Below are positions 5,936 to 55,682 of a DNA stretch of 64,000 nucleotides, piece by piece. Within the stretch, counting starts at the first letter, position 1, and each line of letters begins with the position of its first letter. A model generated the notes under the pieces. The model worked only from the letters and a program-made list of their open reading frames with translations, was not told where the DNA came from and did not search any database. Made by a program: the position numbers and the translations under genes. Origin of the DNA: Bacteroidia bacterium (GTDB lineage: Bacteria; Bacteroidota; Bacteroidia; CAILMK01; JACPUW01); contig JAGDZV010000001.1 of the NCBI GenBank assembly GCA_049115495.1, positions 370,947-434,946 on the forward strand, given 5' to 3'.

Positions 5936-5936
5936 C

Positions 5937-7044: not shown

Positions 7045-7077
7045 TCTGAAATCAAGCTCCCGTTTGATTTATAATTT

Positions 7078-9660: not shown

Positions 9661-9777
9661 TTACAAATACATCAATTACAAAAGTTATTAGAACATACGA
9701 TTGTAAATTTATTACAACTATTGACTTGACAAGCACAAGCTCAAAAAGTTTATATAATCGTAGAAATTTAATGTTAT

Positions 9778-29708: not shown

Positions 29709-29736
29709 TTCTCAAATTCAATTTAGTTTTTAGTAA

Positions 29737-33939: not shown

Positions 33940-34152
33940 ATGAAGAAGAACATGGGAAGCACCGATAGAATTGTAAGGTTAATAATTGCAATTGTAATAG
34001 CCGCACTCTATTTCACAAACGTTGTAAGCGGAACTTTAGGGCTTATTCTACTTGTACTGGGTACAATTTTTGCCCTTACATCTTTTGTAAGCTTTTGCCC
34101 TTTATACTTGCCCTTTGGCTTGAGCACTTGTAAAACTGAGAAGACTTTATAG
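33940..34152 (+). CDS. DUF2892 (YgaP-like) small membrane protein.
   Basis: 70 aa. DRIVRLIIAIVIAALY...GLILLVLGTIFALTSFVSFCPLYLPFGLSTC matches the DUF2892 consensus (two TM, CPxY...G..T). Confidence 0.6.
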   Translation: MKKNMGSTDRIVRLIIAIVIAALYFTNVVSGTLGLILLVLGTIFALTSFVSFCPLYLPFGLSTCKTEKTL

Positions 34153-35046: not shown

Positions 35047-35079
35047 TGCTTTTGCAGCTATTAATTAATTCTAAAATTT

Positions 35080-37486: not shown

Positions 37487-38878
37487 CTATACTATTTTAA
37501 AATACTGTTTTGTTAGCATAAAAAAGTGCCAGCATATTTTGGCTCCATCTTTTATGTCAATAGGAATCAAAGATCCGCTATCTAAAGTCAGGTTTTCTTT
37601 CAAGTGTTTCCCATCTTTTTCGGCATCAACATAAGCGTAGCCTAAAAGTTTTCCTTTTTCTAGCACAAAAGCAACTTTCTCATTTGCTTTCCGCCCATTT
37701 CCTGTAAATATTCCAGTAGGCTGATAGGCTCTTTTTTGATTCAATATTTTAACAAAAACGGTATTATCGGCTTCTTCTCTCACCTCTTTTTGAGTAAGAA
37801 TTGATTTGGTTTTACTCATTCTTACAAGGTTTAAGTCATAACTCTTTGAGCTCAGCTTAAACTTCTCTGCTAGCTTTTTTATTTCCTTTTCAGCTGTTTT
37901 AAAATCTTTAAAATATGCCAAATGAATGGCGTTCTTCTCTCTTACTCTTGTAATTCCAACCCTGTATGAATTGCGTTTTTTGAAAATGCTTAAGGCATAA
38001 CGGTATTCTAGTTGTTTAACATGAATATTTAATGCTGGGGGTTTTGAAAAAACTTCTTGATAAAACAACAGCTCTGCCAGTAGTTCATTACCGCATAATT
38101 GATACTCTATTTTGTTAAATTTAAAACTATGGAGTCTAAATCGCTCGTATCGCTTTGATGGAGAGAATATCTTTTTTGCTGAGTTTTTTATAGACTCGCC
38201 TCTACCAATGTACAAGGATTTACCTTTTTTATCCTTCAAATAGTAAATACCTGGTTCGTCCGGAAGCTCAGCCAAAAACTCTTCGCCAACATTAACTTTT
38301 CCAGTTGGTTCGGTCATCGCATTATGACCTTTTCTTTTGGTCGTCTCTAAGACTTCAAGAATGCTTTCTTCTTTAAGTAGCTTAAGAAAAAGGTTTGCTG
38401 TGGTTAATGCATCGCCCAAGGCTCTGTGTCTGTCTGCAACTTCTACGTTTAAACTTCTGCAAAGTTTTCCCAAACTATATGATGGTTCTTCGGCAAAAAG
38501 TATTCTGCTCATATCTATAGTGCAATACTGATCGGCCGTATATTCTATTCCAAGCTTTCTTAGCTCAGCCCTTAAATAGGTGTAATCAAACGAAGCATTA
38601 TGGGCCACAAAAAAAGAGTTTCCTAAAAATTCCACTATCTCTCTAGCCACTTCTTTAAAAACAGGAGCATCAACCAGATCATCGTCAGTAATTCCTGTAA
38701 GCTTAGAAACATACTTATCCATTGCTTGCTCTGGATTTACCAATGTAGCATATTCAGAAACAATGGTTCGGTTTCTGATTTTTACAATTCCGATTTCTAT
38801 TATTCTGCCATTTTTATGATTGCCGCCCGTGGCTTCAATGTCAACTACGCAATAGGTACTGTCCATAAACTTTCGCAA
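37487..38878 (-). CDS. DnaQ-like (DEDDh) 3'-5' exonuclease fused to a GIY-YIG nuclease domain.
   Basis: Exo I YCVVDIEATGG. Exo II FVAHNASFDYTYL. Exo III HRALGDALTTANL. Then a GIY-YIG block PGIYYLKDKKGKSLYIGRGESIKNS...R...E. A C-terminal ~150-aa domain of unknown function follows. Confidence 0.7.
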   Translation of the reverse strand: MRKFMDSTYCVVDIEATGGNHKNGRIIEIGIVKIRNRTIVSEYATLVNPEQAMDKYVSKLTGITDDDLVDAPVFKEVAREIVEFLGNSFFVAHNASFDYTYLRAELRKLGIEYTADQYCTIDMSRILFAEEPSYSLGKLCRSLNVEVADRHRALGDALTTANLFLKLLKEESILEVLETTKRKGHNAMTEPTGKVNVGEEFLAELPDEPGIYYLKDKKGKSLYIGRGESIKNSAKKIFSPSKRYERFRLHSFKFNKIEYQLCGNELLAELLFYQEVFSKPPALNIHVKQLEYRYALSIFKKRNSYRVGITRVREKNAIHLAYFKDFKTAEKEIKKLAEKFKLSSKSYDLNLVRMSKTKSILTQKEVREEADNTVFVKILNQKRAYQPTGIFTGNGRKANEKVAFVLEKGKLLGYAYVDAEKDGKHLKENLTLDSGSLIPIDIKDGAKICWHFFMLTKQYFKIV

Positions 38879-39034
38879 AAATAACCGACGGAACGCACAA
38901 CAAATTAAACCTTTAGACCTCTACGATTTTTTAACTAATCAAGTGCTATCATTCACGTCAAAAAACTCAATACTGGCGGCTATTTCAATGCCTAAATCAA
39001 TGACTTTGGTCACCTTACGGTCGTAGCGATATTT

Positions 39035-39042
39035 TATCTTTG
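39035..39042 (+). promoter_or_regulatory. Candidate -7 element TATCTTTG (TAnnTTTG) 27 bp upstream of the giant ORF's ATG.
   Basis: It matches the Bacteroidetes promoter -7 consensus. The upstream TTG spacing is a little long. Speculative. Confidence 0.25.
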
Positions 39043-39068
39043 TTGATTAGTCGAATAAAAACCTTCTT

Positions 39069-42000
39069 ATGCTAAAGCATACCCCTAAGCATCTAATTCT
39101 ACTTTTTATTTCACTTTTTAGTGCGCCATTGTTAAAGGCTCAAATGTCAGGTACTTATTCTATTGACAAAACGAGTAGTGCAACTAGAAATTATACATCT
39201 TTTACTGCGGCGGTAAATGCCCTTAACTCTGTAGGGGTTAGTGGAGCAGTAAAGTTTGAAGTAGCAAATGGAAACTACAATGAGCAAATAACATTGCTTT
39301 ATGTTTCGGGATCTTCCACCACAAACACCATCACTTTTGTTGGTAAAGATTCGAGCAAGGTTTCACTAAACTATAATTGCTCTCAATACGAAGCTGTTAT
39401 AAAGGTAAATGCTGCTGCCAACTTTGTATTTGAAGGCATGACCATTAAGAGCACAAATGCTAGTTATGGATACGGGGTGCATATTACATCAAGTGCCGAA
39501 AACATAAGCATTAGAAATTGTAGAGTAGAAGTATCGGCGACTAGCAATGTACCAGTAGAATGCGTACCTGTAAATGTGGCTGGTGGAACCGTTACTACAA
39601 ACGGTGATAATGGAGAAAAAATTGAAGTAACAAACTCAGTTTTGCGAGGTGGCTATTACGGATTAAACATTAGAGGAACTAATAATAGCTTATTAAGCGA
39701 AGGTTTTACTATTGAAAACAATCATTTTTATCAGCAACGTTTTTATCCTGTTTTTGCTGTTTTTGCCAAAGATCTCAACCTTAATGAAAACGTTATTGAC
39801 AGCACCAATTTATTTTATTCCTACTCTGTTTATACAGACCAATGTGCTGGAGGAAGCATTATTGGCAATAGGATTTATGCTGGAAGATTTGGGCTTTATC
39901 TCAGACTGCACAACTATTATAATCGCGCAGACTCATTGGTAATTAGCAACAACGAAATAAGTGATTTTGATGACCCAAGTTATCAATCCGGAATTTATGC
40001 TGTTGCTTCATATAATATTTCTGCTTACCACAATACCATTAGAACTGATGGAACGGTGAGCAACTTCAATTATTCATGTATTTATTTATCTAACCCGTAC
40101 AATCATCGCATATTAAATAATAACCTTGTTGCTGAAGGAAATAGTAGTGTGCTTTTTTTAGGAAATGGAAGCCTTGGAAGCACCTACATTGATTACAATA
40201 ATTACAGTACGACTGCAAATGGAGGATTTGTGAGCTGGCAAGGTACATCATACTCAAACCTAGCTGATCTAAAAGCAGCAACAAGTAGCCAAAATCAAAA
40301 CTCCATTAGCGAAAATCCGCAGTTTAGTTCTAAAAGAAATTTATCACCTAATACACCAGGTTTAAACAATAGAGCAAGAAATGGTTTAAGCTCATTTGAT
40401 ATTTTAAGAAATGTAAGACCAAAGTTTCCTGATGTTGTTTCAGACATAGGTGCATATGAGTATTATGTAGATTCAAATGATATTGACATAATTGCTATTA
40501 CAAGCCCATTGATTGGCCAATTGGGAAATAATGATCTGGCAATTGTTCTAAAAAACAATGGAAGTAAACCTTACCGAGACTCGGTGTTTGTACAATACAA
40601 AATCAACAATGGTTCATGGACTAAGGATACATCAGTATACACATCATTAGCTATTGGAGCCGCTGACACATTTTATTTTACCACAAATTGGAACATTACT
40701 TCATCAGGCACCTTTACTGTATGTGCCGATATTTCACCTGTAGTTCCAGGTGACCCTGACTCTTTAGTAGGTGAAGAATATTGTGAGACAAAATGTGTAG
40801 GTAGGTCTGGAACATTTACCATTGACGCCTCTGGTAATGGTGATTATACCACTTTTACCCAAGCCATAAATTCTCTTACTTGCGGCATTGCTGGCCCAAT
40901 TACTTTTAAAGTTAAACCAGGAAATTATAATGAGCGATTAACAATTACACCTGTTCTAGGTGCATCGGTACAAAATCTTATAACTTTTGAAGGAGCGCAC
41001 AAAGACAGCGTAACATTAAACTATAATGGAACATCGTCTCTTCCAGCTTCTGTTTTAATTGATGATGCAGACTTTTTAACTTTTAAAAATCTAACTATCA
41101 ACAACCAAGGCAATCAAGTTTCTTGTGGATTTTGGCTTAGAGAAGATGTTAAAAATGTAAGAATAGAAAACTGCCAAATATTTTTAGACTCGGTTGCTAG
41201 TATTTATAGTTCTGCTGGTATTTTGATTGCCAACTCACTTCCTACGTGGTCATGGACAATCCCAGGTAATACTTCAAATAATTTGGTAATCAAGAATAAC
41301 CTTATAGTTGGTGGTAGCAGCGGAATAAGAATTAATGGATCTGGTGCTACAGCCACTGCTCAAAAACTTGAAATTGAGAATAACATAATTAGAAAATATT
41401 ACTATCAAGGCTTAAATGCCGCTTATGTAAGTGAATCTAAATTTAAAAAGAATCATATTACTGGTCCAAGGTTAATTAGTGCCATAGGTTTTGGAATGTT
41501 TAATTGTCAAAACGATAGCGTTGATGCGAATTATATTCAAGGTGGAAGATTTGGACTCTATTTATCAAGAGAGAATTTTGACAACAGGAATACATTTACG
41601 GCTATTACCAATAATATGATTACCAATTTGATTGATGCAAATTATCAAATTGGCTTAATGGCATCTCTGGGCTATAATCTATCTATTTATCACAACTCAA
41701 TTTGGACTAGCCATTCTTTTTCTTCTCCATACTACTCAGGAATGAACCTTTATTACTGCCAAAATAGTTTTGCAAAAAACAACGCTATTAAAGCTACAAA
41801 TGGCGGGATGGTTTTTTCAAAGTACTATGGAAATATTAGCCGATCGAATATTGACAACAACAACTACTACGGTGAAGGTGCTGCAAAATATTATCATGAT
41901 GGTTTAACATTTACTGACCTTGGAACCTATAAAAGCATTAGAACTAACTTTAATTCAAATAGTCTAGAAGGTGAACCCAATTATACATCAATTACCGACC

Positions 42001-45000
42001 TACATGCTAGTGGTGCTCAGCTTAACAATAAAGGCGTAAACGGACTTGGCGTTGATAAGGATTATGATGATGAAGACAGACCTTTTTCTCCTGATAAAAA
42101 GCGCGATATTGGGGCTGATGAATATTATGTAAGTCCTTTCGATCTTGATCTTGTTTCGCTAGACTCTCCTTTGGTACCAGTTATTGGCCAAAATGAAGTG
42201 AAGATAATTTTGAGAAACGCTGGTATAAAAGACCTTGTAGATGACACCATGGTTGTGAGCTATTTGGTTGATGGCAATCTTGAAATTAGAGACACTGTAA
42301 TAATATCTTCACTAAAGCAAAATGAGAGTTTTACTTACACTTTTAGTAAAACTTGGAATATTTCAATTGGTAAAACGTACAAGTTGTGCGCTCAACTTGA
42401 CACCTTTTTTAAGCCCGATCCTGACTCACTAATTAATCAACAAAAGTGTGCATCTATGTGCCCAGGAGCAAAAGGCTCCTATACAATTGATGCTTCAGGG
42501 GGTGGCGATTACACCTCATTTAAAGCGGCACTTAATGCCCTTAATTGTGGAATAAATGGCCCTGTAACCTTTAACGTAAAAAATGGCACATACAATGAAA
42601 GGCTGGTAATTAATGAAATTATTGGCGCATCAAATCAGAATACAGTTTCATTTATTGGCGAAAGCAGAAAAGGAGTTATTCTTAATTACACCGGAGTAAG
42701 AGATAGCCAAGAAGTAATTCACCTTGAAGGCGCCGATTACATCTCTTTTGACCGAATGACAATTAAGAACAATAGCCAATGGTATAGCAGAGGTGTAAGA
42801 ATAAGCACGAAGGCAGATTATAACACTTTTAGTAATGTATCTTTTGATTTACCAAGTAATGCTACTAGTTGGAGTACATCTAATGTTTACATTTCAGATG
42901 AAAACCTTTCAACCTTAGGCGATGCCGGTAATTTCAATGTATTTACCAATTGTTCTTTTGAATATGGCTACTTCGGTGTAAGGCTTTATGGTATTGGAAA
43001 TACATCACTTAATTACGGAAATGAGTTTAATAACTGTAGCTTTAGAAACCATAGAGCATTTGGGATTTATGCCCTTTACCAAGGTCAATTAAAGGTAAAT
43101 GACTGCTCATTTGATTCTTTACAGCTTGATTTTTACCAAATTTATGAGAACCGATGTAGTGAGAGTATTATTACAAACAACTTAATTAAAGATGGTAGAT
43201 ATGGTATCTATCAGATTTATGAGAACTACTATTTTCAAGAAGAAACTTCAGAAATTTCGAACAACCTAATTAGCGGACAAGACTTTAGCACTGATATTTA
43301 TGGAGTGGACCTCTATTTATGTTATAACATAAAGTTCTTTCACAACAGCTTAATGGTAAATAAGGGCACAAGTGGTGCCGCTGTAAGGTTTAGGTTTGGT
43401 AATGGGCACGACATTAGGAATAATTCATTTTCAAAATCTACAAATGCTGAATTGTTTTCAAATACGAATTCTTCTTTTTCAGAAATCGACTTCAATAACT
43501 ACTACTCTGGTAGTTCAAGCAACTTTGTAAATTATAATGGTACTGCATATGACGACCTTCAAAAATGGAGTAATGCAGTAAGTGGTTTTAACAGAAACTC
43601 GAAAGAAGGTGATCCCGGTTACAACTCGTCTTCAGACCTTACTATTGACCCAAAAAGCAAACAACTGGCCAATTGGGGTTCAATTTCAACTGGTATAGGC
43701 AGTGATTTTGAAGGTGATATACGAAACCCTCAATCGCCAGATGTAGGAGCAGATGAATTCTCAGACTTATATGATATTGGGGTAAGTAGCATTCTTAGTC
43801 CACTAAGTAATTGCGAACTCAGCAACTCAGAAACCATAACTATTGAAATAGAAAATAAAGGGAATATTGCCTTGCCAAGCGGCGAGCTTATTCCTGTGGC
43901 ATACTCAATTGACGGCAGTTCAGCTCAAGTTGACACATTTATTTTAAGCTCCAATCTGTCAAAAAATGGAAAGGTACAGTTCACCTTTTCACAAAAGGCT
44001 GATTTCTCAGCATTTAAAAGCTTTAACCTTAAAGCCTACACCGATATTGCCAATGATTCATTACGGACAAATGATACGCTCGCTGTTGTTAGAAGTTCAT
44101 TTGAAAATCCAACTGCGGACTTTAGTATTGACAACATTGCTTGTAGTAATGAAGATGTAAACTTTTCTAATTCATCTTCTACTTCAGTAGCAACAATAAG
44201 TGCCTATAATTGGAATTTTGGCAATGGTTTAGCATCAACAGCCCAAAACTCAAAAACGAGCTATAGCAATGATGGCAATTTTAGCATAAAGCTAATTGTA
44301 ACTACCACAAACGGTTGTAAAGACTCAATAACTAAGAGTATTACCGTTTACCCAAAACCATCGGCAAGCTTTACCAGCAGCAACCTTTGTTTTGGAGATT
44401 CGGCCATTTTTACAAATACTTCGAATATTGCCACTTCAATTGGCGCTACATTTAATTGGGATTTTGATGATAACACCACATCTACAAAAAGAAGCCCCAA
44501 ACATATGTTTGCGACTGCCGATGATTTTGATATAGAATTCATTGCAATAAGTGCCAATGGATGTAAAGACACGGCAACAAGCACTATTCAGATATCACCT
44601 AACCCTGTTGCAAGCTTCAGCTTTGCAAATTCATGCAAAGGCGATTCAAACATCTTCAATAACACATCAACAATTCCAAATGGGTTTACACCAACTTACA
44701 GTTGGAAATTTGGTGATGGTAATAGCTCAAGCAATAAAAATCCAAAATATGTTTATGGCTCAATTGGAAACTATACTATTGAACTGACGGCTTCATTAGC
44801 CAATGGATGCTCAAATAGCGTTGCCAATTCACTTAATGTTTTTAGTAAACCTCAGCCGGCATTTACCGTTTCAAATGGCTGTCAAGGCGACTCAATATTA
44901 TTTACTGATAATTCGGTAATTCAATTAGATACAATTAAGAATTATGAGTGGTTTTTTGACGATGGAAATATTTCAAGCTTAGAGAACCCAAAAAACCTTT

Positions 45001-48000
45001 ATACCAACGATGGTAGTTACAGCCCCAAGTTGGTTCTAACTTCTATTAATGGTTGTAAAGATAGCTTGACAAAAAATTTGACTATAAACGAGAAGCCTAA
45101 TGCCAGTTTCAGCGTAAATGCGGTTTGTGAAAATGACACAAGTAAATTCTACAACAGTTCAAGTGTATCAAATGGAAGTATAATTCAATATAACTGGACT
45201 TTTGGAAATGGTTTGAGTTCAAGCTTAGCTTCACCAAAACATGTTTATAGTAGCTATGGTTCCTACAATTCAACTTTGATTATTACTTCCAATAATGGTT
45301 GTAAAGACACAGCAAATGCCATTGCACAAGTAAATGCAAGTCCAATTGCAAACTTTGATGCTCCAAATGTGTGCTTTGGAAGTAATCTGTTTATTAGAAA
45401 TCAATCTACAATTGCCAGTGGAAACATTACGTCTTACAGTTGGAATCTAGGCGATGGCACAAGTTCGTCTACCGTAAATCCTGTTCATCGATATACTTCA
45501 AAAGACACCTTTACAATAAAGCATGTCATTCAAAGTAATCTTGGATGTAAGGATTCAATTGAAAAGGATGTGATAGTTACTAGCAAAGTAATTGCAAGTT
45601 TTAGCACAGATAGCCTGTGCCATGGCGACTCTACCGCATTTAAGAATACTACGAATATTAGCTGCGGTACAGTTTTAGGTTACAGCTGGGATTTTGGTGA
45701 TGGTAACACATCAAATGATTGGAGCCCAAAACATAAATATGCAAACGCAGGATCTTATGTAGTTAAACTAATAGTAATTCAATTTGGCAATGTCAAGGAC
45801 TCAACGTCACAAACGGTTGTTATTAATTCAATACCAAAAGCCAATTTTAGCTTTAATAATGTTTGCGCAACCGATAGTGCATCGTTTATTAATACTTCTT
45901 CAATTGCAACTGGCACTATAAACAGCTACGAATGGAAATTTGGTGACGGCAACAGAAGTACCGCCTTAAGTCCAAAGCATGCCTATAATAGCGAAAACAC
46001 TTATTCTGTAACCTTAACTGCAGTTGGTTCAGGTGGCTGTATAGATTCAGCATCAAAAAACGTAACTGCTTTTGAATTACCTGTTGCTGATTTCAGCTTA
46101 AGCAATGCATGTTTGGGATCAAGTGTATCTTTCAACAATTCATCTTCAATTACAACCGGTACATTAACCTTCAATTGGCAATTTGGCAATGGATTTAGCT
46201 CAAGTCAGAAAAATCCAAATTATAATTACTCCAATAATGGTACCTATACTGTTAAATTGACTACAACATCTAACAATGGATGTGTGGCAGCTGACTCTCA
46301 GAATGTAACAATTCATCCAAAACCGGTAGCTAATTTCACTGCCTTAAATCAATGTTCCAATAAGGCAATTTCATTTACCAATACTTCTACCATATCAGCG
46401 GGAACTGTATCATACCAATGGAAATTTGGTGATGGTAACCGCAGCACTGCCATAAACCCTAGTCATAAATACTCAAGTGCAGGAAGTTATTCGGTAACAC
46501 TTATTGTTACTTCCAATAATGGTTGTATTGATTCAGTTACCAAATCAATAAGTGCATTGCCAACCCCAATAGCCAACTTCACATCTCCTTCATCTTGTAG
46601 TGGTACTAATCTTACTTTCACAAACGCATCGAGCATTTCTATCGGAACTTTAACACACTCTTGGCAATTTGGCGATGGAAACGTAAGTACTAGTATAAGC
46701 CCCACACATAATTATTCGAGTACAGGAACTTATCAAGTAAAACTAGTTACTACGGCAAGCAGCGGTTGTAAAGATTCAATTACGAAAACTATAAATGTTT
46801 ATGACATTCCAGTATCAAGTTTTTCAGTTACCGGAAGTTGCCTTAGCGATAGCATTGTGTTCAACAACACATCAAGCATAGGCGCAGGTACTATGAGTTT
46901 TGCTTGGAGTTTAGGGGATGGCACAACTACTACGAATTCAAGTGTAAATCACAAATACGCATCTGCAGGCAGCTATCAAGTTAAACTAGTGGCAACATCT
47001 AATGGCGGATGTAAGGATAGCACAACCACCACGGTTAATATTTACCCAACCCCTTCTGCCAGTTTCAATACCAATGATAATTGCTTTGCAGAAGCAACAA
47101 TTTTTACGAATAACAGTAGCATTTCATTAGGTACCCTTTCATATTTCTGGGATTTTGACAATGGCTCTGCCAGTACTTTGGCCAATCCTTCATTTACATT
47201 TAACAAAAGCGGCAGCTATAACGTAAAACTTACCGCTACGAGTAACCAAGGTTGTTCTGACTCTTCTGAAAAAATGGTAAACGTTTATGTTAACCCTAAA
47301 GCGGATTTTGCTTTTGCCAAAACTTGTCTTGACGATACAACTGTATTTACAAACAATTCTACTATAAGCTCAGGAAATTTGAATTTCATTTGGGATTTTG
47401 ATGATGGTAACAATTCTAATCTATCAAATTCTAAAAATAGATATTCTAAAACAGGAACTTATTTTGTTGAGCTAATAGCAGTTTCTACTTATGGATGTGC
47501 TGATACATCAATTTCTAAGGTTCACATTAATCCAAAAGCTAACTCTTCATTTATTGTTCAAAATACATGTTTAGGTGAATTTGTGAGTTTTAGAAATAAC
47601 TCAAGTATTAGCAGCGGAAGCTTCACAACTAATTGGAATTTTGATGATGGTACATCTTCAAATGCGCTTAACCCAAAACATTTATACAATGCGGCTGGTA
47701 CTTACTTACCATCTTTAACGCTTACTACAGATAGTGGCTGTATTTCTGTTTCGAACACTGGTTTAATAATTAATGAAAAACCTACCGCAAGCTTTAGTTT
47801 TAATAATGTTTGCGCAAATGACACTGCCCAATTTATTGATAACGCTAGCATTAATTCTGGAACAATTACAAATCATAATTGGAGTTTTGGTGATGGATTC
47901 ACAACTACATTGCCTTCACCTCTTCATAAATATGACACAAAGGGGAATTATGGTGTCGAATTGATTGTAGCATCAGACTCTGGCTGTACCGATACTGCGA

Positions 48001-51000
48001 ATGCAACAATTTCAATCTACGCAGTACCATTAACCTACTTTAGCGCGAATAATGTTTGCTTTGGTGATACATTATTCCCTTCAAATACTAGTTCAATTAG
48101 CGGTGGAATAATTAACAGCTACCGTTGGAATTTTGGTGATGGAAACACGTCCAATTCTCAATCGCCTTCACATTACTATGTCAACAAAGGCAACTTTGAT
48201 ATTAAGTTGATTGCTACTTCAAATAACAATTGTAGCGATAGCCTTACAAAACAGGTGATTGTTGACAATGTAATAATTCCTGGGTTTAGTTTTAGCAATT
48301 CTTGCATAGGCAACAAAATAGACTTTACAAACACCACAAATGCCAGCTGTGGAAACATTTCGAGCTATCAATGGGCATTTGGCGATGGTGGAATTTCAAG
48401 TCAAACAAATCCGAGTTATGTTTACAATAAGCCTGGAACCTATAATGTAAGACTTATTGTAACTGAAAAAGCGGGTAGAAAAGATACCATAACTCAACAG
48501 GTAACTGTTTATCCAAATCCTAATGTTCTATTTTCAGTAAACGATACTTGTGCCAATAGTGCGCCTATATTTAATAACCAAAGTTCAATAATAAGCGGCA
48601 ACATTTCTGATTACACATGGAGCTTTGGTGATGGAACTAAAAGTTCAAACGCCATACCACAAAAAAGCTACAACAATCAGGGAACATACAAAATCCAATT
48701 ATTGGCTGAAAGCAATTTTGGATGCAAAGACTCAATGCAAAAAAATATTGAAATTTTTGAGCTACCAACTGTAAGGTTTAATGCGAACGTAGAGTGTCTC
48801 TATGATAGCGTTTACTTTACCAATAGAAGTTCAATATCGAGCAACTCCCTGAGTTACTCATGGAATTTTGATGATCTAGGAATATCAACAAGCGCCAACC
48901 CTATACACAAATATTCAAATGCTGGAAAATTCGATGTTAAACTGATTGCTACATCGGTTAAAGGTTGTTCGTCTTCTTTGGTTAAATCTGTTTATGTTAA
49001 TCATGTACCAAACGCTTCAATAATTGGAGATTCAACATGCGTTGGTTTTGCTTCTGCTTTTAAAAATTATTCAAATATTACTAGAGGAACTTTAGTAAAT
49101 AACACTTGGCGATTTGGCGATGGTTTTGGGAGTGCTAATTCAAACCCAAGTCACACCTATTCAACAAGCGGAAACTTCAATGTTTCTTTAATAATCGAAT
49201 CTGACAGTGGATGTTTTGATACAAGCGCAACAATTGCAGTAGTGCATCCAAATCCTCAAGCGGACTTTGTAGCCAATAATGTCTGCCTTGGAGACGCTTT
49301 AAACCCAACCAACAACTCAAGTATAACTTCTGGCTCCATTTCAAAATGGCAGTGGAGTTTTGGTGATGGTAACTCATCAACCTTAAAATCTCCTTCTCAT
49401 ACCTATTCGAATAATGGCAGCTACAGTGTACAACTAGGTGCATCAAGCAATTACGGATGTAAAGATTCAATTGCTCAACAAGTTGTGGTAAGCAATGTAA
49501 TTACTGCTGGATTTACAACAAACGACATCTGTTTAGGAGACACTGCTTTCTTTACCAATACTACGAGCACTTCATGTGGTACCATAATTGGTTATCAGTG
49601 GAACTTTGGCGATGGCAATGCTTCAACCGCAACAAACCCTTTTAGGATTTATGGAAGTACAGGAACCTACACTGTTCAGTTGATAGTTACACAACAAGGT
49701 GGTAACAAAGACACTGTAACATCAACAATTACAGTAAGTCCTAAACCAAGAGTAAATTTCTTTGCAAACAATGCTTGCGCGGGTAAGCAGCTTCAGTTTC
49801 AAAACCTTAGTACCATCTCTTCTGGTAACATTGGTAGCTACATTTGGAATTTTGGGAATGGCAACAAAAGCATAGATAGAAACCCTAAACATACGTATAG
49901 TAGTCATGGAGCATATGATGTAGTTTTAATCGCCACATCAAATCAAGGGTGTACTGATTCAGTCTCAAAACCATTGAGCATTTACGAGCTTCCTGTCGTT
50001 TCCTTCATAGCAGAAAATGTTTGTTTCGGAGAATCTACAACATTCAATAACAAGTCTAGCATTTCAACAGGCTCAATAGACAATAGCTGGGATTTTGGAG
50101 ATGGATTTAGTAGTTCTCAAATAAATCCTTCATATCAATATTCTAATGCCGGTAGTTATACAGTTGAGCTTACTGTGACAACAAACAACTTCTGCACGTC
50201 AAAACTGTCTCAAGCTATTAAGGTATTTGAGCTTCCTAACGTTGATTTTGAAATCAATGATACTTGCGAAGCAGACGAAATAAGCCTAACTAACAACTCT
50301 ACCATTGCAAATGGTGCATTGAGCTTTGCCTGGGATTTTGGCAATGGCAACACATCAAATGCTAAAACTCCAAGTCTTGTTTATACGAATGATGGTAGCT
50401 ATTTGGTAGAATTAAAAGCAATTAGCAACGCTGGTTGTGCCGACTCATTAAGTAAGTCTATTAGCATATTTGAAAAGCCTATGGCATCCTTTAACTATAA
50501 TGGAACTTGCCCAGATCAAAGTATGTCGTTCTCAAACACCAGTTCTCCAGCAAGCTTAATCTCTTCAAATCAATGGTTATTTAATGGTTCAGATGCTACA
50601 ACATCTACGAACTCTTCATATATATTTGGATCAAATGGTCCGCATACCGTAGTCTTAACCATTACATCAATTAACAATTGTATAGATACTGCAGTGAAGC
50701 AGGTTAGATTTGAATCGGTACCAGTTGCGTCCTTCAGTTTTAATTCTGGCTGCGAAAGAGATAGTTTCGAGTTTATAAATAAGACTACAATTCAAAGCGG
50801 AAACTTAACCTATAATTGGACGTTTGGAGACGGAAATTCAAGTACTCAAACAAATCCAAAAAACGTTTACGCCACAACTGGAAATTTTGATATTAAACTT
50901 GTTGCCACATCAGATTTAGGATGTGCTGATTCCTTAATTCAAAGTGTTTCACCTCTTAACAAACCAGAAGTAGATTTTGCTTGGAGTGGCGCTTGTTTAG

Positions 51001-51962
51001 GAGACACTGTTTACTTCAATAACAATACTTCTAAAGATTTTGGACAAGAATATCAATGGCATTTAGGAGTTTTAGATGCTACTGACACCCTTATTAACTC
51101 AAAGTATTATTACACAAGTACTGGAAAGTACAATGTAGCTCTAAAAGTAATTGGTGCCAATAACTGCTCAGATAGCATTACTAAATCAATTGAAATTGCC
51201 GAAGGACCTAAAAACCTCGACTTCACTTTTAACGATGCTTGCGCAAGAACTAAAGTTAAATTCAATAATCAAACAACTAATAGCAACCTAAACTTCAGGT
51301 GGGTGTTTTTTGATGGATCTTTCTCGACTGAAAGAGAACCAGAAAAGTACTATGCAAGAGCAGGAAAGTATCCTGTTGGTTTTGAAGCCAGTGAAGGAGA
51401 CTGCGCTGATTCAACCTATAAACTCATTACAATTTTCCCATACGCAGATAGCTCTTTTACCTTTAAAGGCTTAGGAAGTAGGGCAGTAATATTCACCCCA
51501 CAAGACAGCAATATCCACTCCTACAATTGGGAGTTTGGTGATGGAAATACCAGCACGAGTTTTGAACCTACACACACTTACAGTAATAATGGAACATATA
51601 CAGTAACATTAACGGTGATAACTCAAAATGGATGTCAAAGCATTTCAACAAGGCAAGTAGAAATACAGGGTAGCTCAATTCATTGGATCGATGAAAAGAA
51701 TATTGATTTTGATGTTTTCCCTAATCCATTTACAGATTTTGTAAGTGTTTCTTTTGAGATTGAAAATGAAGGAAGAGTAACGATTGAAGTGTTTAATGAA
51801 ATTGGTCAAGTAGTATCAACTCCTCTAAACTCAACATTGAGAATTGGAAAATATCAGCTTCCGCTTTTCGAAAATACCGCTAATCTGAGAGGTGGCGTTT
51901 ACTATGTGAAAATGGTTTCGAATGACAATGCAACAATTAAAAGAATTGTTTTACAGAAGTAA
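39069..51962 (+). CDS. Giant (4297 aa) T9SS-secreted surface protein. It has a signal peptide, three right-handed parallel beta-helix (pectate-lyase-fold) modules separated by Ig-like/CARDB-like linkers, about 28 tandem PKD domains, and a C-terminal Por/T9SS sorting domain.
   Basis: Signal peptide MLKHTPKHLILLFISLFSAPLLKAQ. A module head motif recurs three times (SGTYSIDKTS..NYTSFTAAVNAL.. / SGTFTIDASGNGDYTTFTQAINSL.. / KGSYTIDASGGGDYTSFKAALNAL..). Each is followed by I/V-x-N-N parallel-beta-helix rungs. From aa ~1680 to ~4200 there are ~88-aa repeats with the PKD signature ...Y-x-W-x-FGDG..S...NP.H.Y...G.Y.V.L.V....GC.DS..K.I.V. The C-terminus DVFPNPFTDFVSVSFEIENEGRVTIEVFNEIGQVV...GVYYVKM is a type-A T9SS CTD. 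Confidence 0.85.
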   Translation: MLKHTPKHLILLFISLFSAPLLKAQMSGTYSIDKTSSATRNYTSFTAAVNALNSVGVSGAVKFEVANGNYNEQITLLYVSGSSTTNTITFVGKDSSKVSLNYNCSQYEAVIKVNAAANFVFEGMTIKSTNASYGYGVHITSSAENISIRNCRVEVSATSNVPVECVPVNVAGGTVTTNGDNGEKIEVTNSVLRGGYYGLNIRGTNNSLLSEGFTIENNHFYQQRFYPVFAVFAKDLNLNENVIDSTNLFYSYSVYTDQCAGGSIIGNRIYAGRFGLYLRLHNYYNRADSLVISNNEISDFDDPSYQSGIYAVASYNISAYHNTIRTDGTVSNFNYSCIYLSNPYNHRILNNNLVAEGNSSVLFLGNGSLGSTYIDYNNYSTTANGGFVSWQGTSYSNLADLKAATSSQNQNSISENPQFSSKRNLSPNTPGLNNRARNGLSSFDILRNVRPKFPDVVSDIGAYEYYVDSNDIDIIAITSPLIGQLGNNDLAIVLKNNGSKPYRDSVFVQYKINNGSWTKDTSVYTSLAIGAADTFYFTTNWNITSSGTFTVCADISPVVPGDPDSLVGEEYCETKCVGRSGTFTIDASGNGDYTTFTQAINSLTCGIAGPITFKVKPGNYNERLTITPVLGASVQNLITFEGAHKDSVTLNYNGTSSLPASVLIDDADFLTFKNLTINNQGNQVSCGFWLREDVKNVRIENCQIFLDSVASIYSSAGILIANSLPTWSWTIPGNTSNNLVIKNNLIVGGSSGIRINGSGATATAQKLEIENNIIRKYYYQGLNAAYVSESKFKKNHITGPRLISAIGFGMFNCQNDSVDANYIQGGRFGLYLSRENFDNRNTFTAITNNMITNLIDANYQIGLMASLGYNLSIYHNSIWTSHSFSSPYYSGMNLYYCQNSFAKNNAIKATNGGMVFSKYYGNISRSNIDNNNYYGEGAAKYYHDGLTFTDLGTYKSIRTNFNSNSLEGEPNYTSITDLHASGAQLNNKGVNGLGVDKDYDDEDRPFSPDKKRDIGADEYYVSPFDLDLVSLDSPLVPVIGQNEVKIILRNAGIKDLVDDTMVVSYLVDGNLEIRDTVIISSLKQNESFTYTFSKTWNISIGKTYKLCAQLDTFFKPDPDSLINQQKCASMCPGAKGSYTIDASGGGDYTSFKAALNALNCGINGPVTFNVKNGTYNERLVINEIIGASNQNTVSFIGESRKGVILNYTGVRDSQEVIHLEGADYISFDRMTIKNNSQWYSRGVRISTKADYNTFSNVSFDLPSNATSWSTSNVYISDENLSTLGDAGNFNVFTNCSFEYGYFGVRLYGIGNTSLNYGNEFNNCSFRNHRAFGIYALYQGQLKVNDCSFDSLQLDFYQIYENRCSESIITNNLIKDGRYGIYQIYENYYFQEETSEISNNLISGQDFSTDIYGVDLYLCYNIKFFHNSLMVNKGTSGAAVRFRFGNGHDIRNNSFSKSTNAELFSNTNSSFSEIDFNNYYSGSSSNFVNYNGTAYDDLQKWSNAVSGFNRNSKEGDPGYNSSSDLTIDPKSKQLANWGSISTGIGSDFEGDIRNPQSPDVGADEFSDLYDIGVSSILSPLSNCELSNSETITIEIENKGNIALPSGELIPVAYSIDGSSAQVDTFILSSNLSKNGKVQFTFSQKADFSAFKSFNLKAYTDIANDSLRTNDTLAVVRSSFENPTADFSIDNIACSNEDVNFSNSSSTSVATISAYNWNFGNGLASTAQNSKTSYSNDGNFSIKLIVTTTNGCKDSITKSITVYPKPSASFTSSNLCFGDSAIFTNTSNIATSIGATFNWDFDDNTTSTKRSPKHMFATADDFDIEFIAISANGCKDTATSTIQISPNPVASFSFANSCKGDSNIFNNTSTIPNGFTPTYSWKFGDGNSSSNKNPKYVYGSIGNYTIELTASLANGCSNSVANSLNVFSKPQPAFTVSNGCQGDSILFTDNSVIQLDTIKNYEWFFDDGNISSLENPKNLYTNDGSYSPKLVLTSINGCKDSLTKNLTINEKPNASFSVNAVCENDTSKFYNSSSVSNGSIIQYNWTFGNGLSSSLASPKHVYSSYGSYNSTLIITSNNGCKDTANAIAQVNASPIANFDAPNVCFGSNLFIRNQSTIASGNITSYSWNLGDGTSSSTVNPVHRYTSKDTFTIKHVIQSNLGCKDSIEKDVIVTSKVIASFSTDSLCHGDSTAFKNTTNISCGTVLGYSWDFGDGNTSNDWSPKHKYANAGSYVVKLIVIQFGNVKDSTSQTVVINSIPKANFSFNNVCATDSASFINTSSIATGTINSYEWKFGDGNRSTALSPKHAYNSENTYSVTLTAVGSGGCIDSASKNVTAFELPVADFSLSNACLGSSVSFNNSSSITTGTLTFNWQFGNGFSSSQKNPNYNYSNNGTYTVKLTTTSNNGCVAADSQNVTIHPKPVANFTALNQCSNKAISFTNTSTISAGTVSYQWKFGDGNRSTAINPSHKYSSAGSYSVTLIVTSNNGCIDSVTKSISALPTPIANFTSPSSCSGTNLTFTNASSISIGTLTHSWQFGDGNVSTSISPTHNYSSTGTYQVKLVTTASSGCKDSITKTINVYDIPVSSFSVTGSCLSDSIVFNNTSSIGAGTMSFAWSLGDGTTTTNSSVNHKYASAGSYQVKLVATSNGGCKDSTTTTVNIYPTPSASFNTNDNCFAEATIFTNNSSISLGTLSYFWDFDNGSASTLANPSFTFNKSGSYNVKLTATSNQGCSDSSEKMVNVYVNPKADFAFAKTCLDDTTVFTNNSTISSGNLNFIWDFDDGNNSNLSNSKNRYSKTGTYFVELIAVSTYGCADTSISKVHINPKANSSFIVQNTCLGEFVSFRNNSSISSGSFTTNWNFDDGTSSNALNPKHLYNAAGTYLPSLTLTTDSGCISVSNTGLIINEKPTASFSFNNVCANDTAQFIDNASINSGTITNHNWSFGDGFTTTLPSPLHKYDTKGNYGVELIVASDSGCTDTANATISIYAVPLTYFSANNVCFGDTLFPSNTSSISGGIINSYRWNFGDGNTSNSQSPSHYYVNKGNFDIKLIATSNNNCSDSLTKQVIVDNVIIPGFSFSNSCIGNKIDFTNTTNASCGNISSYQWAFGDGGISSQTNPSYVYNKPGTYNVRLIVTEKAGRKDTITQQVTVYPNPNVLFSVNDTCANSAPIFNNQSSIISGNISDYTWSFGDGTKSSNAIPQKSYNNQGTYKIQLLAESNFGCKDSMQKNIEIFELPTVRFNANVECLYDSVYFTNRSSISSNSLSYSWNFDDLGISTSANPIHKYSNAGKFDVKLIATSVKGCSSSLVKSVYVNHVPNASIIGDSTCVGFASAFKNYSNITRGTLVNNTWRFGDGFGSANSNPSHTYSTSGNFNVSLIIESDSGCFDTSATIAVVHPNPQADFVANNVCLGDALNPTNNSSITSGSISKWQWSFGDGNSSTLKSPSHTYSNNGSYSVQLGASSNYGCKDSIAQQVVVSNVITAGFTTNDICLGDTAFFTNTTSTSCGTIIGYQWNFGDGNASTATNPFRIYGSTGTYTVQLIVTQQGGNKDTVTSTITVSPKPRVNFFANNACAGKQLQFQNLSTISSGNIGSYIWNFGNGNKSIDRNPKHTYSSHGAYDVVLIATSNQGCTDSVSKPLSIYELPVVSFIAENVCFGESTTFNNKSSISTGSIDNSWDFGDGFSSSQINPSYQYSNAGSYTVELTVTTNNFCTSKLSQAIKVFELPNVDFEINDTCEADEISLTNNSTIANGALSFAWDFGNGNTSNAKTPSLVYTNDGSYLVELKAISNAGCADSLSKSISIFEKPMASFNYNGTCPDQSMSFSNTSSPASLISSNQWLFNGSDATTSTNSSYIFGSNGPHTVVLTITSINNCIDTAVKQVRFESVPVASFSFNSGCERDSFEFINKTTIQSGNLTYNWTFGDGNSSTQTNPKNVYATTGNFDIKLVATSDLGCADSLIQSVSPLNKPEVDFAWSGACLGDTVYFNNNTSKDFGQEYQWHLGVLDATDTLINSKYYYTSTGKYNVALKVIGANNCSDSITKSIEIAEGPKNLDFTFNDACARTKVKFNNQTTNSNLNFRWVFFDGSFSTEREPEKYYARAGKYPVGFEASEGDCADSTYKLITIFPYADSSFTFKGLGSRAVIFTPQDSNIHSYNWEFGDGNTSTSFEPTHTYSNNGTYTVTLTVITQNGCQSISTRQVEIQGSSIHWIDEKNIDFDVFPNPFTDFVSVSFEIENEGRVTIEVFNEIGQVVSTPLNSTLRIGKYQLPLFENTANLRGGVYYVKMVSNDNATIKRIVLQK

Positions 51963-51971: not shown

Positions 51972-52056
51972 AAACAAAAGGTAACTCAATGTTGGGTTGC
52001 CTTTTGTTTAAACTCTCTTTGCTTTAAAAGGCAAGTAGTTGTCTTTTAAAGCAAAG
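51972..52056 (+). terminator. Two tandem perfect hairpins immediately after the giant gene. One is AAACAAAAGG-N18-CCTTTTGTTT (10-bp stem). The other is CTTTGCTTTAAAAG-N12-CTTTTAAAGCAAAG (14-bp stem).
   Basis: Read directly from the sequence. They begin 10 nt after the stop codon of the 12.9 kb gene. Confidence 0.5.
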
Positions 52057-52412
52057 GCCTTTTCCCCAATTATAATGAGGTTTAAAATTAGTTCATTTTT
52101 AAATTGTCCGAAAATCACGTAAGTCTACACTTTGATTTGAAAATAAAGAAGGCTTAGTTTGAAATCCTAGCTTTTGAACAAGAGTGCTTAAACACGGAAT
52201 ATGCTTAATTGTAATGAAGGTTTACTTCGCTAGTGGTCAGAACCAGCACCAGCTATTCTGGGAAAGTACTAATTTGATGTCATAGTGCTGCTTTGCTAAT
52301 TCTGAAAACGAAACGAAGTCTCAGATTTGAAGGGAATTAAAGTCGAGATGGATTCATTTTCAAATTATTCAGTTAACACGATTAATGCATAATTTAATAA
52401 ACTATTGACAAT

Positions 52413-52448
52413 AAAAAAGCGGTCCCTAACCACAAGGACCGCTCCCAC
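52413..52448 (-). terminator. Intrinsic-terminator-like hairpin GCGGTCC-N10-GGACCGC followed by a T-run on the minus strand.
   Basis: It sits just 3' of the minus-strand gene that ends at 52471. Confidence 0.4.
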
Positions 52449-52470
52449 ATATAAAAAAGTGCATTACTAA

Positions 52471-54599: not shown

Positions 54600-55682
54600 T
54601 TATTTCGCTTCAAAAAATTGTGACCAGCCAACATGACTGAATTTAGTTCCTTCTCCCCATGCGTTGGCACACTCGCCTAGCGATGTTTTATGAGATATGG
54701 GTAAATTTTCAACTGGCAGCCACATAACACTTTGCTGAACTGCAACGTTTGGCGTTTGATTATTTGACAATGCATCTTTACACCCTTGGTCTAGCAAAAC
54801 GAGAAAGAATTGATCACAACCAGGAATAAAGCCAACACCCTTAGCCGAAGCATCTGCTACAACTTGATCTACAATTGCTTCATTAAAACTAAAACCTTGA
54901 TTACCATTTACAGGGTTATCATCATCAATTAAAGTCCAAACCGCAGCTTGAATTTCATTTGCACCAGCACCAAACTTTGTTTGATAATCTTGATTAATTA
55001 AGTAATTAATAATTGGAAGGTTTTCTGGTCTGTCTACAATGCAAGCCAATAATGCTTGGTCAGTATCATAAGAAGATACCAATTTTGGAAAATATCGCAC
55101 TCGTTGGCTTATAGGATTCTCTAAATCAACACAATTTCCAAGGTAAACACCACTAAAAATTGTATTTCCTGTTGTAACATCAATTACTCTCATTTGAAAG
55201 TATGCCGGGTTTCCGCTGAAGGAAACAGTCTGTAATACTTTTCCCGTAGGAATACTCGAATTAATTATGGAGATATCAGTTTTACAAGTGCTTGCTTGAG
55301 CTACATTAGCATTTGCCGAAACATAAACGTAGGGTTGCCCTGTAACATCTATATTATCATACTTATAAACCCTTGCTTCATCATGATTCGTTTGATAGGT
55401 AAACTGCTGAATATCAGGAACCCCAGACCCCAAGGTAGGGAAGCCGTTTGCATTGTTTGCTACATGTAAATATGATTTGGTCATAAACCATGTAGAGTCC
55501 GTAATTTCATAAGTTACATCTAATGAGTCGCCAACTCTTTCAACGTGTATAAATCCGATATCATTGCTTCTCGCCGCAACTAAAGGAGTTGAATACGAAA
55601 AGTCTTGTGCATTTGCCCATTGAAAACAAGATGAAAGTAGTAAAAGTGAAATTCCAATAATCTTAATCCTAATGTGTGACAT
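54600..55682 (-). CDS. Hypothetical secreted protein or lipoprotein.
   Basis: Signal peptide with MSHIRIKIIGISLLLLSSCFQWANAQ; a possible lipobox LSSC. I do not recognise a domain. It lies 38 bp upstream of the T9SS cargo gene on the same strand. Confidence 0.4.
   Translation of the reverse strand: MSHIRIKIIGISLLLLSSCFQWANAQDFSYSTPLVAARSNDIGFIHVERVGDSLDVTYEITDSTWFMTKSYLHVANNANGFPTLGSGVPDIQQFTYQTNHDEARVYKYDNIDVTGQPYVYVSANANVAQASTCKTDISIINSSIPTGKVLQTVSFSGNPAYFQMRVIDVTTGNTIFSGVYLGNCVDLENPISQRVRYFPKLVSSYDTDQALLACIVDRPENLPIINYLINQDYQTKFGAGANEIQAAVWTLIDDDNPVNGNQGFSFNEAIVDQVVADASAKGVGFIPGCDQFFLVLLDQGCKDALSNNQTPNVAVQQSVMWLPVENLPISHKTSLGECANAWGEGTKFSHVGWSQFFEAK

Follow-up and report, generated by a model that had tools for sequence, protein, structure and literature searches.

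A 4297-residue predicted T9SS cargo combining three beta-helix modules and a 31-domain PKD stalk in a Bacteroidia bacterium

The 12.9-kb gene at positions 39069-51962 (+ strand) of the window—the whole stretch of 64,000 nucleotides that was analysed—encodes a protein of about 470 kDa, in which a Sec signal peptide, three beta-helix plus CARDB modules, 31 PKD domains and a type-A C-terminal sorting domain (CTD) follow one another in this order. [quoted passage not shown] The gene itself, repeat-rich as it is, is real and correctly assembled, which matters for genome scanning.

The gene and its locus

The reading frame begins with an ATG and runs without interruption over 4297 codons to a TAA stop, exactly where the original prediction had placed it. 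By an estimate from base composition, taking about 7% stop codons per random codon, a stop-free run of this length would arise by chance with a probability of about e^-310. From the reading of the ORF, and from an orthologue of identical length, the gene is complete and monocistronic. Its upstream neighbour, a DEDDh exonuclease gene, is divergent; its downstream neighbour is convergent and encodes a second CTD protein (CTD/DUF8202). GT2 (cellulose/PNAG-synthase-like) and GT87-like genes lie 6-9 kb upstream, and no SusC/D or PUL genes were found within ±15 kb. Because the base composition is uniform along the whole gene, we rejected the possibility of a horizontally transferred island.

The orthologue, P0020, is 71.7% identical, counts exactly 4297 aa and aligns with 0 gaps. 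Its locus is syntenic, with the same neighbours, and it was assembled independently from at least three metagenomes (JGI 3300044604, JGI 3300041032 and SRR32932194). The gene appears to be under purifying selection with its length fixed: pN is 0.17 and pS 0.74 (saturated), with a dN/dS of about 0.06 in the modules and the stalk alike.

A putative Bacteroidota-type -7 promoter box (TAtcTTTG; 39035..39042, + strand) sits inside a conserved upstream block (~38998-39060); its sequence GATATTTTATCTTTG is kept unchanged in L007 and L009, two orthologous loci in which the flanks diverge. A sigma-70 consensus scan was uninformative for this Bacteroidota gene. Two strong hairpins (z = -8.2) follow the stop codon. 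Hairpin 1 (51972..52009, + strand), a 17-bp stem flanked by an A-tract and a U-tract, is a probable intrinsic terminator, and its equivalent, followed by U8, is found in L007; hairpin 2 (52016..52057, + strand), a 19-bp stem, is lineage-specific and not conserved in L007. A dedicated tandem double terminator had been announced at this place: the two hairpins are indeed there, but only the first is conserved in the orthologue. Neither of these + strand hairpins was flagged by a consensus terminator scan, and an Rfam search of the 3' intergenic region gave no family at gathering score. The gene would be transcribed alone from the conserved promoter, and its transcription terminated at hairpin 1.

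The signal peptide (aa 1-24; 39069..39140, + strand), read as MLKHTPKHLILLFISLFSAPLLKA followed by Q, has a basic n-region, a hydrophobic core of 14 residues and an A/Q junction (the slash standing for the cleavage point) that is retained in the orthologue as LNA/Q. Cleavage and formation of a pyroGlu at this junction, according to the ‘Q-rule’, presumably occur, and Sec would export the protein through this 24-residue peptide.

The beta-helix modules and the PKD stalk

Three tandem modules with a shared head, each made of a beta-helix and an Ig/CARDB spacer, had been predicted, and this layout is borne out. From the alignment of the three, module 1 (aa 25-578; 39141..40802, + strand) comprises a right-handed beta-helix, an invariant C-cap motif and a CARDB-like Ig domain. 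Module 2 (aa 579-1133; 40803..42467, + strand) has its beta-helix, cap and Ig sandwich at module positions 1-370, 371-447 and 448-552 respectively, and module 3 (aa 1134-1682; 42468..44114, + strand), a beta-helix plus an Ig domain, is in addition recognised by Pfam Beta_helix PF13229 (31.5 bits, cutoff 25.9). The modules are collinear over about 555 aa each, with 31-32% identity between them, and their conserved head motifs begin at aa 28, 581 and 1136. The AF2 model of module 2 (pLDDT 88.3, pTM 0.80) displays a right-handed beta-helix and then a C-terminal Ig sandwich, the latter resembling the CARDB structure 3idu (TMt 0.68). On this module the Pfam CARDB model PF07705 reaches 20.6 bits for a cutoff of 22.7, and a domain homologous to the CARDB spacer, in L001, scores 45.4 bits. 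The module profile matched no PDB sequence and the modules matched nothing in NCBIfam; searched against PDB and Pfam, the profile of the tail and cap gave 9rx2 as sole match, which is non-significant (E 0.69).

Over 749 modules of the family, nothing is invariant or nearly so except an Asn ladder, with one Asn per coil, and the cap residues D420/R426/G437/E440 (pattern D-x5-R-x10-G-A-x-E), of which the R and the G are present in 749/749. R249, H297 and D351 are common to the three modules described here, but not family-wide, a point against the adhesin-like reading. Tyr ladders also run on successive coils of the family consensus; the three modules keep them just partly, and we do not read them as a binding stripe.

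This architecture had been considered unusual. The exhaustive search with the module profile contradicts this view: it retrieved 7,412 cluster representatives, mostly from Bacteroidota and relatives, and the top ones are giants of 2-8 kaa, which contain as many as 11 full tandem modules and in some cases a PKD stalk. Giants predominate among the best 150 of these 7,412 matches, where the median is 5 full tandem modules; 30 of the 150 contain the same 2-Cys PKD type as the protein studied here, nine of them in at least 10 copies. A word-indexed homology search with module 2 had yielded 18 matches only, i.e. a more than 400-fold undercount, and the rare-family reading drawn from it is thus overturned. 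Relatives in a GTDB genome scan (Chitinophagales, Ignavibacteria) were at 26-30% only. Among 50 family giants, 31 end in a Por_Secre_tail domain and about 19 in a different C-terminal domain without Pfam match. By its sequence, the giant protein is a member of a large and uncharacterised family that is not rare: we searched the literature for T9SS giants with tandem beta-helices and found no description, no member has been characterised, and annotation pipelines label this very large family merely ‘beta-helix repeat’, ‘CARDB’ or ‘hypothetical’.

The stalk (aa 1683-4203; 44115..51677, + strand) consists of 31 tandem PKD domains with a period of 81-82 aa. Pfam detects PKD_4 (PF18911) in 30 stretches, for 1247.5 bits, and PKD (PF00801) in 26, both above cutoff, and motif phasing gives 31 phased cores with WxFGDG. 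The predicted array of some 2500 aa is therefore real (2521 aa), but it contains 31 domains instead of about 28, and the repeat period measures 243-246 bp rather than ~264 bp. The conserved DNA core proposed for these repeats, TGGAATTTTGGTGATGG, does recur—21 occurrences at no more than 3 mismatches, for 0.23 expected; whole units, on the other hand, are on average just 48% identical in nucleotides (61% at most) and 36% in amino acids. The longest exact repeat anywhere in the gene is 21 bp, and Tandem Repeats Finder detected no array with the PKD period. The recombinational expansion or contraction foreseen by the original prediction does not fit units so diverged, nor an orthologue of identical length, and for these two reasons we rejected a contingency locus with variation of the repeat number.

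The same data bear on the assembly. Domain arrays in MAG contigs can collapse, as had been feared for this gene, and a look-up in the gene-position index returned no entry identical to this protein. A mis-assembled or collapsed array, giving a spurious ORF length, is nevertheless effectively refuted by the low identity between units and the shortness of their exact repeats, by the composition, constant across the gene, and by the three independent assemblies of the orthologue, which agrees with the gene in its 4297 codons and its neighbours and shows no indel.

Most PKD units possess a conserved Cys pair and, past the second Cys, a D-(S/T)-(aliphatic) sequon; this 2-Cys type accounts for 202 of the 210 units of other family giants. 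In total 37 D-(S/T)-(A/I/L/V/M/T) sequons are found in the stalk, compared with 11.0±3.2 in shuffled sequences, and the sequon occupies the same position in 23 of the 31 units. In the periplasm the Cys pair would staple each PKD unit, and the stalk would probably be O-glycosylated at up to ~37 of these sequons; T9SS cargo is the major class of O-glycoproteins in T. forsythia (PMC8550257). The conservation of the sequon position could also be structural instead of reflecting a glycosylation signal.

Export and function of the fibre

The type-A T9SS sorting domain (aa 4216-4297; 51714..51959, + strand) is recognised by TIGR04183 (30.7 bits, cutoff 23, aa 4216-4296) and by PF18962 (32.5 bits, cutoff 27). 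The claim of a T9SS cargo with a type-A CTD had been staked on a match to the TIGR04183 profile, and this match supports it; the protein thus carries both sequence marks of such a cargo, an N-terminal Sec signal and a C-terminal sorting domain. By analogy, the T9SS would recognise the CTD, the PorV shuttle would take over and the CTD would be removed, after which the protein would end up covalently attached to the cell surface or be released. Recognition, handover to PorV, removal, and anchoring or release are established for the type-A CTD family. In favour of a T9SS cargo there are also the second CTD protein next door, the Por_Secre_tail of 31 of the 50 family giants, and a homologue of GldM/PorM (236.7 bits, cutoff 180) that is encoded in the window, without flanking gldK/L/N; as this homologue lies outside any gldKLMN operon, we only assume that the host has a complete T9SS.

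By definition a fibrillar adhesin is very long, has a stalk built of repeats and bears its adhesive region away from the anchor; beta-solenoid adhesive domains are covered by this definition (PMC9210967). With 4297 aa and 31 tandem PKD domains, the protein is large and displays a rod-like repeat stalk; its beta-helix heads are N-terminal and its sorting signal C-terminal, so that the putative binding region is opposite to the anchor end. Since the anchor end is the C-terminal one, the PKD domains would be the stalk—of about 100 nm, by an estimate at ~4 nm per domain—and the three beta-helix plus CARDB heads would be held at its distal tip. The absence of any indel relative to the orthologue over 4297 residues means that the reach of this stalk appears to matter, and a length conserved to the residue at 72% identity, when added to the Cys pair and sequon phased in each PKD unit, leads to the hypothesis of a rigid, glycan-shielded ruler. 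Most likely the heads bind rather than catalyse, judging from a CASH/PbH1-type carbohydrate-binding fold with no conserved catalytic constellation, and their candidate ligands are most probably glycans carried by algae, by particles or by other cells. Besides, the heads separated from one another long ago, being just 31-32% identical mutually, whereas each is conserved at 72% in its orthologous counterpart; this conservation suggests three non-redundant ligand specificities, i.e. a distinct one for each head.

A cell-surface or secreted multi-enzyme, as first proposed, would have each module acting as a lyase, hydrolase or epimerase on an algal substrate or exopolysaccharide, the PKD domains serving as linker or carbohydrate-binding extension. 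The modules share the right-handed parallel beta-helix fold of lyases and epimerases, which are among their fold neighbours; the N-terminal parts of modules 2 and 3 weakly match Pectinesterase (E 0.017-0.026, 13.7-14.3 bits for a cutoff of 27), and secreted glycanases are common among the type-A cargos of the T9SS. AmyB is an example of these (PMC12618676). The fold neighbours, however, equally include NosD, which is not an enzyme, and two adhesins, PfbA and Vag8; these three score nearly as high, and every enzyme among the neighbours lies at 8-19% sequence identity. No catalytic-family profile of Pfam or NCBIfam passes its cutoff on the protein (the enzyme families in question being PL1/3/6/9, GH28, CE8 and AlgE/AlgG), nor does any CAZyme family of Pfam, and the module profile has, as stated, no match among PDB sequences. 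At helix positions 50-380 of the 749 modules, no D/E/K/R/H column reaches 50% except D351 (61%), and the DPH(D/E) epimerase motif is absent, so that by sequence conservation the helix body has no catalytic constellation, in particular no conserved acid/base residue. Within ±15 kb a PUL/SusCD context is also lacking, and we regard a multi-enzyme as possible but rather unlikely.

If the CTD were cleaved and the fibre shed, the protein might instead be an extracellular matrix or biofilm scaffold, cross-linking exopolysaccharide through its three heads. Type-A CTDs take the PorV route towards static anchoring or release, and the proteins bearing them are often released instead of anchored (PMC12618676). 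RbmB and other matrix-associated beta-helices belong to the fold neighbours, and the GT2 and GT87-like genes upstream go in the same direction; these are, however, neither adjacent to the giant gene nor co-oriented with it in an operon. Certainly no observation separates the released from the anchored model; on the other hand the strict length conservation is more easily explained by a ruler-like anchored stalk, and we hold the released scaffold for unlikely. A mobile gliding adhesin, RemA- or SprB-like and propelled by the gliding machinery, appears highly improbable. [quoted passage not shown] SprB-type adhesins, however, have a type-B CTD, which directs the substrate to the gliding machinery, and a cognate SprF/PorP gene downstream (PMC12618676). 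Here the CTD is of type A, whole-protein scans with Pfam and NCBIfam gave no match to CHU_C (PF13585) or TIGR04131, the downstream gene is convergent, no PorP/SprF gene occurs at the window locus or in L007-L009, and neither SprB repeats nor the SUEL lectin domain were found by Pfam and NCBIfam. The adhesin part of the original prediction thus seems reasonable in its general form, while its SprB-like version is rejected because the CTD is of type A rather than B.

Relation to known systems and to other giants

Like the fibrillar adhesins of Monzon and Bateman (PMC9210967), the predicted T9SS-exported fibre is very large, with a rod-like stalk of Ig-type repeats; like Lactobacillus SRRP among them (PMC9210967), it has beta-solenoid heads, which would form a binding region remote from the anchor end. 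It differs by three heads instead of one, by an adhesion that is putative, and by its predicted T9SS type-A CTD pathway, fibrillar adhesins being mostly defined in Gram-positives with LPXTG anchors. With RemA and SprB of Flavobacterium johnsoniae it shares the nature of a large T9SS surface protein of Bacteroidota (its export being predicted), and with RemA the type-A CTD/PorV route (PMC12618676), but it has no detectable domain homology to either, and the type-B CTD and cognate SprF gene of SprB are absent. The CASH/PbH1 beta-helices of the AlgE4 A-module (2pyg), NosD (7o0y) and PfbA (3zpp/4mr0) are 14-16% identical to the module. Unlike AlgE4, the modules lack the DPH catalytic motif of AlgE, and to the helix they add the head GTYTID..G.YNE and the invariant C-cap D.DG..R...PDIGADE, which our profile searches found covered by no Pfam model or PDB sequence.

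A more speculative proposal, which we advance tentatively and with low confidence, is the following: the beta-helix plus CARDB unit would be a distinct functional module that cells concatenate 2-11 times into multi-headed surface fibres, the protein described here being a minimal three-head version whose disulfide-stapled, periodically O-glycosylated 31-PKD stalk would be a length-locked molecular ruler. The cap, being invariant, might in this case not just close the helix structurally but be a new site of ligand binding or catalysis. The attachment of uncultured aquatic Bacteroidia to particles, algae or other cells probably depends in large part on such multi-headed T9SS fibres.

The other Bacteroidota giants—for example P0020, P0027, P0030, P0032, RPH33061.1 (7452 aa, from a Bacteroidales MAG) and MEO1263025.1 (5530 aa, ‘CARDB domain-containing protein’)—begin with tandem arrays of the same module, in which both the Asn ladder and the D..R..G.E cap (invariant) are found, and many such giants share the 2-Cys PKD stalk and the type-A CTD. 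Compared with them, three modules are few (2-11 in the family, median 5), whereas the stalk of 31 PKD domains is among the longest (0-34 units).

The giant gene and its conserved length

The reading frame at 39069..51962 on the forward strand (ATG start, 4297 codons) was borne out with exactly the coordinates, strand and length of the original prediction. With a G+C of about 36% in the window, some 7% of random codons are stops by arithmetic estimate, so that a frame of this length cannot be open by chance. Its composition (G+C 0.345-0.37 along the gene) is the same as in the remainder of the window, and the gene is thus no obvious foreign island. It stands alone, with a divergent DEDDh exonuclease gene upstream (37487-38878, reverse strand) and a convergent neighbour downstream. 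A putative promoter box, TAtcTTTG (39035-39042, forward strand), belongs to a block fully conserved across the orthologous loci. Two hairpins, both strong (z = -8.2), follow the stop codon at 51972-52009 and 52016-52057 (forward strand). They had been taken as a dedicated tandem double terminator, but while the first has an equivalent in the orthologue (18-bp stem then U8, z = -4.8), the second has none at that locus; we therefore read them as one conserved, probable terminator and one lineage-specific hairpin. An Rfam scan of the 3' intergenic region gave no family match.

The repeats had been proposed as substrates for recombination and as a source of assembly collapse; neither proposal survives. 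The 31 PKD units share on average 36% identity as protein and 48% as DNA (61% at most), exact repeats anywhere in the gene reach no more than 21 bp, and Tandem Repeats Finder did not detect the array. Moreover, the orthologue P0020, found by exhaustive search, has exactly 4297 aa, is 71.7% identical to the giant protein and aligns with it by MAFFT with zero gaps in both sequences; its locus is fully syntenic and comes from independent assemblies (JGI 3300044604, JGI 3300041032 and SRR32932194). The assembly of the giant gene is sound and not collapse-prone. Between the two genes synonymous sites are saturated (pS 0.74) while pN is 0.17, hence a dN/dS of about 0.06, equal in heads and stalk. 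The length of the protein has been kept to the residue through a long divergence. We also considered the gene as a contingency locus, a reading rejected on its diverged repeats and the identical length of its orthologue. In the wider family domain counts do vary (2-11 modules, 0-34 PKD units), so that expansion and contraction occur on long timescales.

Three modules and a phased stalk

The N-terminus reads as a Sec signal peptide, MLKHTPKHLILLFISLFSAPLLKA|QMSG, whose A|Q junction is also present in the orthologue. The head motif, already recognised in the original prediction, was located at aa 28, 581 and 1136, near the beginning of each of three modules (aa 25-578, 579-1133 and 1134-1682). 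An AF2 model of module 2, built with 20 homologues (pLDDT 88.3, pTM 0.80), places a right-handed beta-helix at residues 1-370, an irregular cap at 371-447 and an Ig sandwich at 448-552. Pfam Beta_helix matches module 3 (31.5 bits, cutoff 25.9), and CARDB scores slightly below its cutoff in module 2 (20.6 against 22.7 bits), where Foldseek matches the Ig part of the model to the CARDB structure 3idu. Pfam models and PDB sequences leave the head and cap parts uncovered. The modules are alignable over their full length and only 31-32% identical to one another, while each keeps 72% identity with the corresponding module of the orthologue; this argues for three putative distinct specificities, each separately maintained.

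The stalk (aa 1683-4203) is covered by 30 Pfam PKD_4 stretches. When phased on the WxFGDG core, the array resolves into 31 units with a period of 81-82 aa, i.e. 243-246 bp, slightly different from the approximately 28 units of about 264 bp first counted. The majority of units carry two conserved Cys, at positions ~10 and ~67. In units 7 (45147-45392, aa 2175-2256), 18 (48276-48521, aa 3070-3151) and 23 (49503-49748, aa 3479-3560), all on the forward strand, the second Cys is shifted from ~67 to ~25, as 'SCG', a pattern retained in the orthologue. The reciprocal best unit pairs 17/22, 18/23, 5/16 and 6/17 (46-52%) point to ancient 5- and 11-unit segmental duplications inside the stalk. In the stalk the Bacteroidota sequon D-(S/T)-(A/I/L/V/M/T) is found at 37 sites, compared with 11.0±3.2 in 1000 shuffles (highest count 25); in 23/31 units it occupies the same position, directly after the second Cys. 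This phased Cys/sequon pattern, together with the residue-exact length conservation and the size of the uncharacterised family described below, is what the analysis adds to the original prediction.

A large family of multi-beta-helix giants

A word-indexed search with module 2 returned merely 18 relatives. An exhaustive search of 1.84 billion cluster representatives with a profile of the three modules matched 7,412 proteins, 3,545 of them at E<=1e-30. The best 150 of these matches are nearly all giants (2-7.8 kaa) with a median of 5 full modules and up to 11; the two-Cys type of PKD is found in 30 of them, with at least 10 copies in 9. P0027 combines 5 modules with 20 PKD units, P0030 9 with 15 and P0032 4 with 20. 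The Cys pair is present in 202/210 PKD units of other family giants. The architecture is thus not unusual, as it had seemed, and the giant protein belongs to a large family that has no name. Databases name its relatives only 'parallel beta-helix repeat protein', 'CARDB domain-containing protein' or 'hypothetical', and a literature search on tandem beta-helix T9SS giants found no description. Their sources are MAGs of Bacteroidales, Bacteroidota, Saprospiraceae and Flavobacteriales. The window itself derives from an uncultured Bacteroidia bacterium; its GlyRS matches that of one NCBI MAG at 100% identity and those of the nearest named genera (Brumimicrobium, Roseivirga, Lishizhenia) at about 72%.

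Por_Secre_tail ends 31/50 sampled family giants. The other ~19/50 (P0025, P0034, P0036, P0043-P0047 and others) end without a T9SS CTD and share a terminal domain of ~90 aa, …F.N.GN.DI…GAP…L.L…E..GPPG.LRPGA.G…VY…, with no Pfam match, which could serve as another signal for sorting or anchoring, or be a CARDB-like domain at the terminus. An ORF of a Chitinophagales MAG (46-13383 of CALHDG010000275.1, forward strand; 4445 aa, truncated at the contig start) has at least three modules of the giant-protein type, then another stalk made of Big_5, CarboxypepD_reg, Ig_7, K319L-like PKD and Sde0182_C domains; BLAST found in it no CTD resembling that of the giant protein. Most family modules also bear Tyr at the same two positions of successive coils, forming ladders (173/176, 200/205/208, 228/231, 250/253 and 283/286, numbered as in module 2) kept partly in the giant protein's modules.

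Probable binding, proposed sorting and neighbouring genes

Are the heads enzymes or binders? Fold neighbours of the module are NosD (32.7), alginate epimerase/lyase (30.4), GH87 (30.2), RbmB (29.8), phage tailspikes, the autotransporter Vag8 (28.3) and the pneumococcal adhesin PfbA (27.0), all at 8-19% identity and with Foldseek concordant; being common to enzymes and non-enzymes, the beta-helix cannot settle the question. No catalytic-family profile of Pfam or NCBIfam scored above threshold on the giant protein or its modules, and the module profile found no relative among PDB sequences. Across 749 full modules of the family, conservation falls on an Asn ladder of ~27-residue spacing (N217, 243, 270/271, 298, 326/327 and 353, each 94-100%; weaker at N194, 89%, and N166, 75%) and on the cap motif D420, R426, G437 and E440 (97-100%). 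Between helix positions 50 and 380 the Asp, Glu, Lys, Arg and His columns all stay below 50%, bar D351, part of the last-coil 'DYNNY' motif, and no DPH motif is present. Neither SusC/D nor PUL genes lie near the giant gene, in the window or in the orthologous loci. The multi-enzyme once envisaged is not supported, and binding is therefore favoured over catalysis; this preference is not proof, since beta-helix enzymes can have active sites particular to one lineage.

The last ~80 residues match both type-A CTD profiles (PF18962, 32.5 against 27; TIGR04183, 30.7 against 23), and the assignment to the T9SS stands. The Sec system would export the protein; in the periplasm a disulfide would staple each PKD unit through its Cys pair, and the stalk is probably O-glycosylated at the sequons. 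In T. forsythia T9SS cargo is the major class of O-glycoproteins (PMC8550257). The T9SS would then recognise the CTD and pass it to PorV, with static surface anchoring or release as the outcome, as described for type-A CTDs (PMC12618676). As the sorting end is C-terminal, the stalk would reach outwards from the cell with the three heads at its far end, a predicted arrangement of stalk and heads distal to the anchor end that recalls fibrillar adhesins (PMC9210967). In its working the giant protein most likely resembles fibrillar adhesins and T9SS type-A adhesins such as RemA. The proposed likeness to SprB fails on sorting: neither a type-B CTD nor a SprF/PorP gene was found.

The window also holds a GldM/PorM homologue (7078-8712, reverse strand; TIGR03517, 236.7 bits, cutoff 180) that stands alone, flanked by genes for a fatty-acid desaturase, YdjM and an S41 peptidase instead of gldK/L/N; possibly it is an orphan or a paralogue among T9SS motor genes. 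The convergent neighbour of the giant gene (52471-54561, reverse strand) encodes a 695-aa protein with a T9SS type-A CTD (46.2 bits), whose orthologues bear DUF8202. It is followed by the gene of a 359-aa protein without family match (54600-55682, reverse strand), and the two keep their synteny with the giant gene at the orthologous loci L007-L009. At the 3' end of the 695-aa protein gene lies a terminator hairpin, GGGAGCGGTCCTTGTGGTTAGGGACCGCTTTTTT (52415-52470, reverse strand), present in one copy in the window. With its flanks (~65 nt) it is nearly identical in L007, where DNA identity of the adjacent giant gene is no more than 70% and the 500-bp intergenic region cannot otherwise be aligned; the hairpin and its flanks may represent a conserved element of 3'-UTR or sRNA-like type.

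At 34147-35721 (reverse strand) a carotenoid-synthesis protein gene adjoins that of a CarH/LitR-like MerR-type regulator bearing a B12-binding domain, a pair also conserved in L007-L009, and a phytoene desaturase gene (crtI; 20857-22371, reverse strand) lies 12 kb away; together they look like a light-regulated carotenoid regulon. Finally, a co-oriented block at 26560-33208 (forward strand), 6-12 kb upstream of the giant gene, encodes a hybrid histidine kinase, a GT2 (cellulose/PNAG-synthase-like) and a GT87-like membrane protein, and may be an exopolysaccharide locus.
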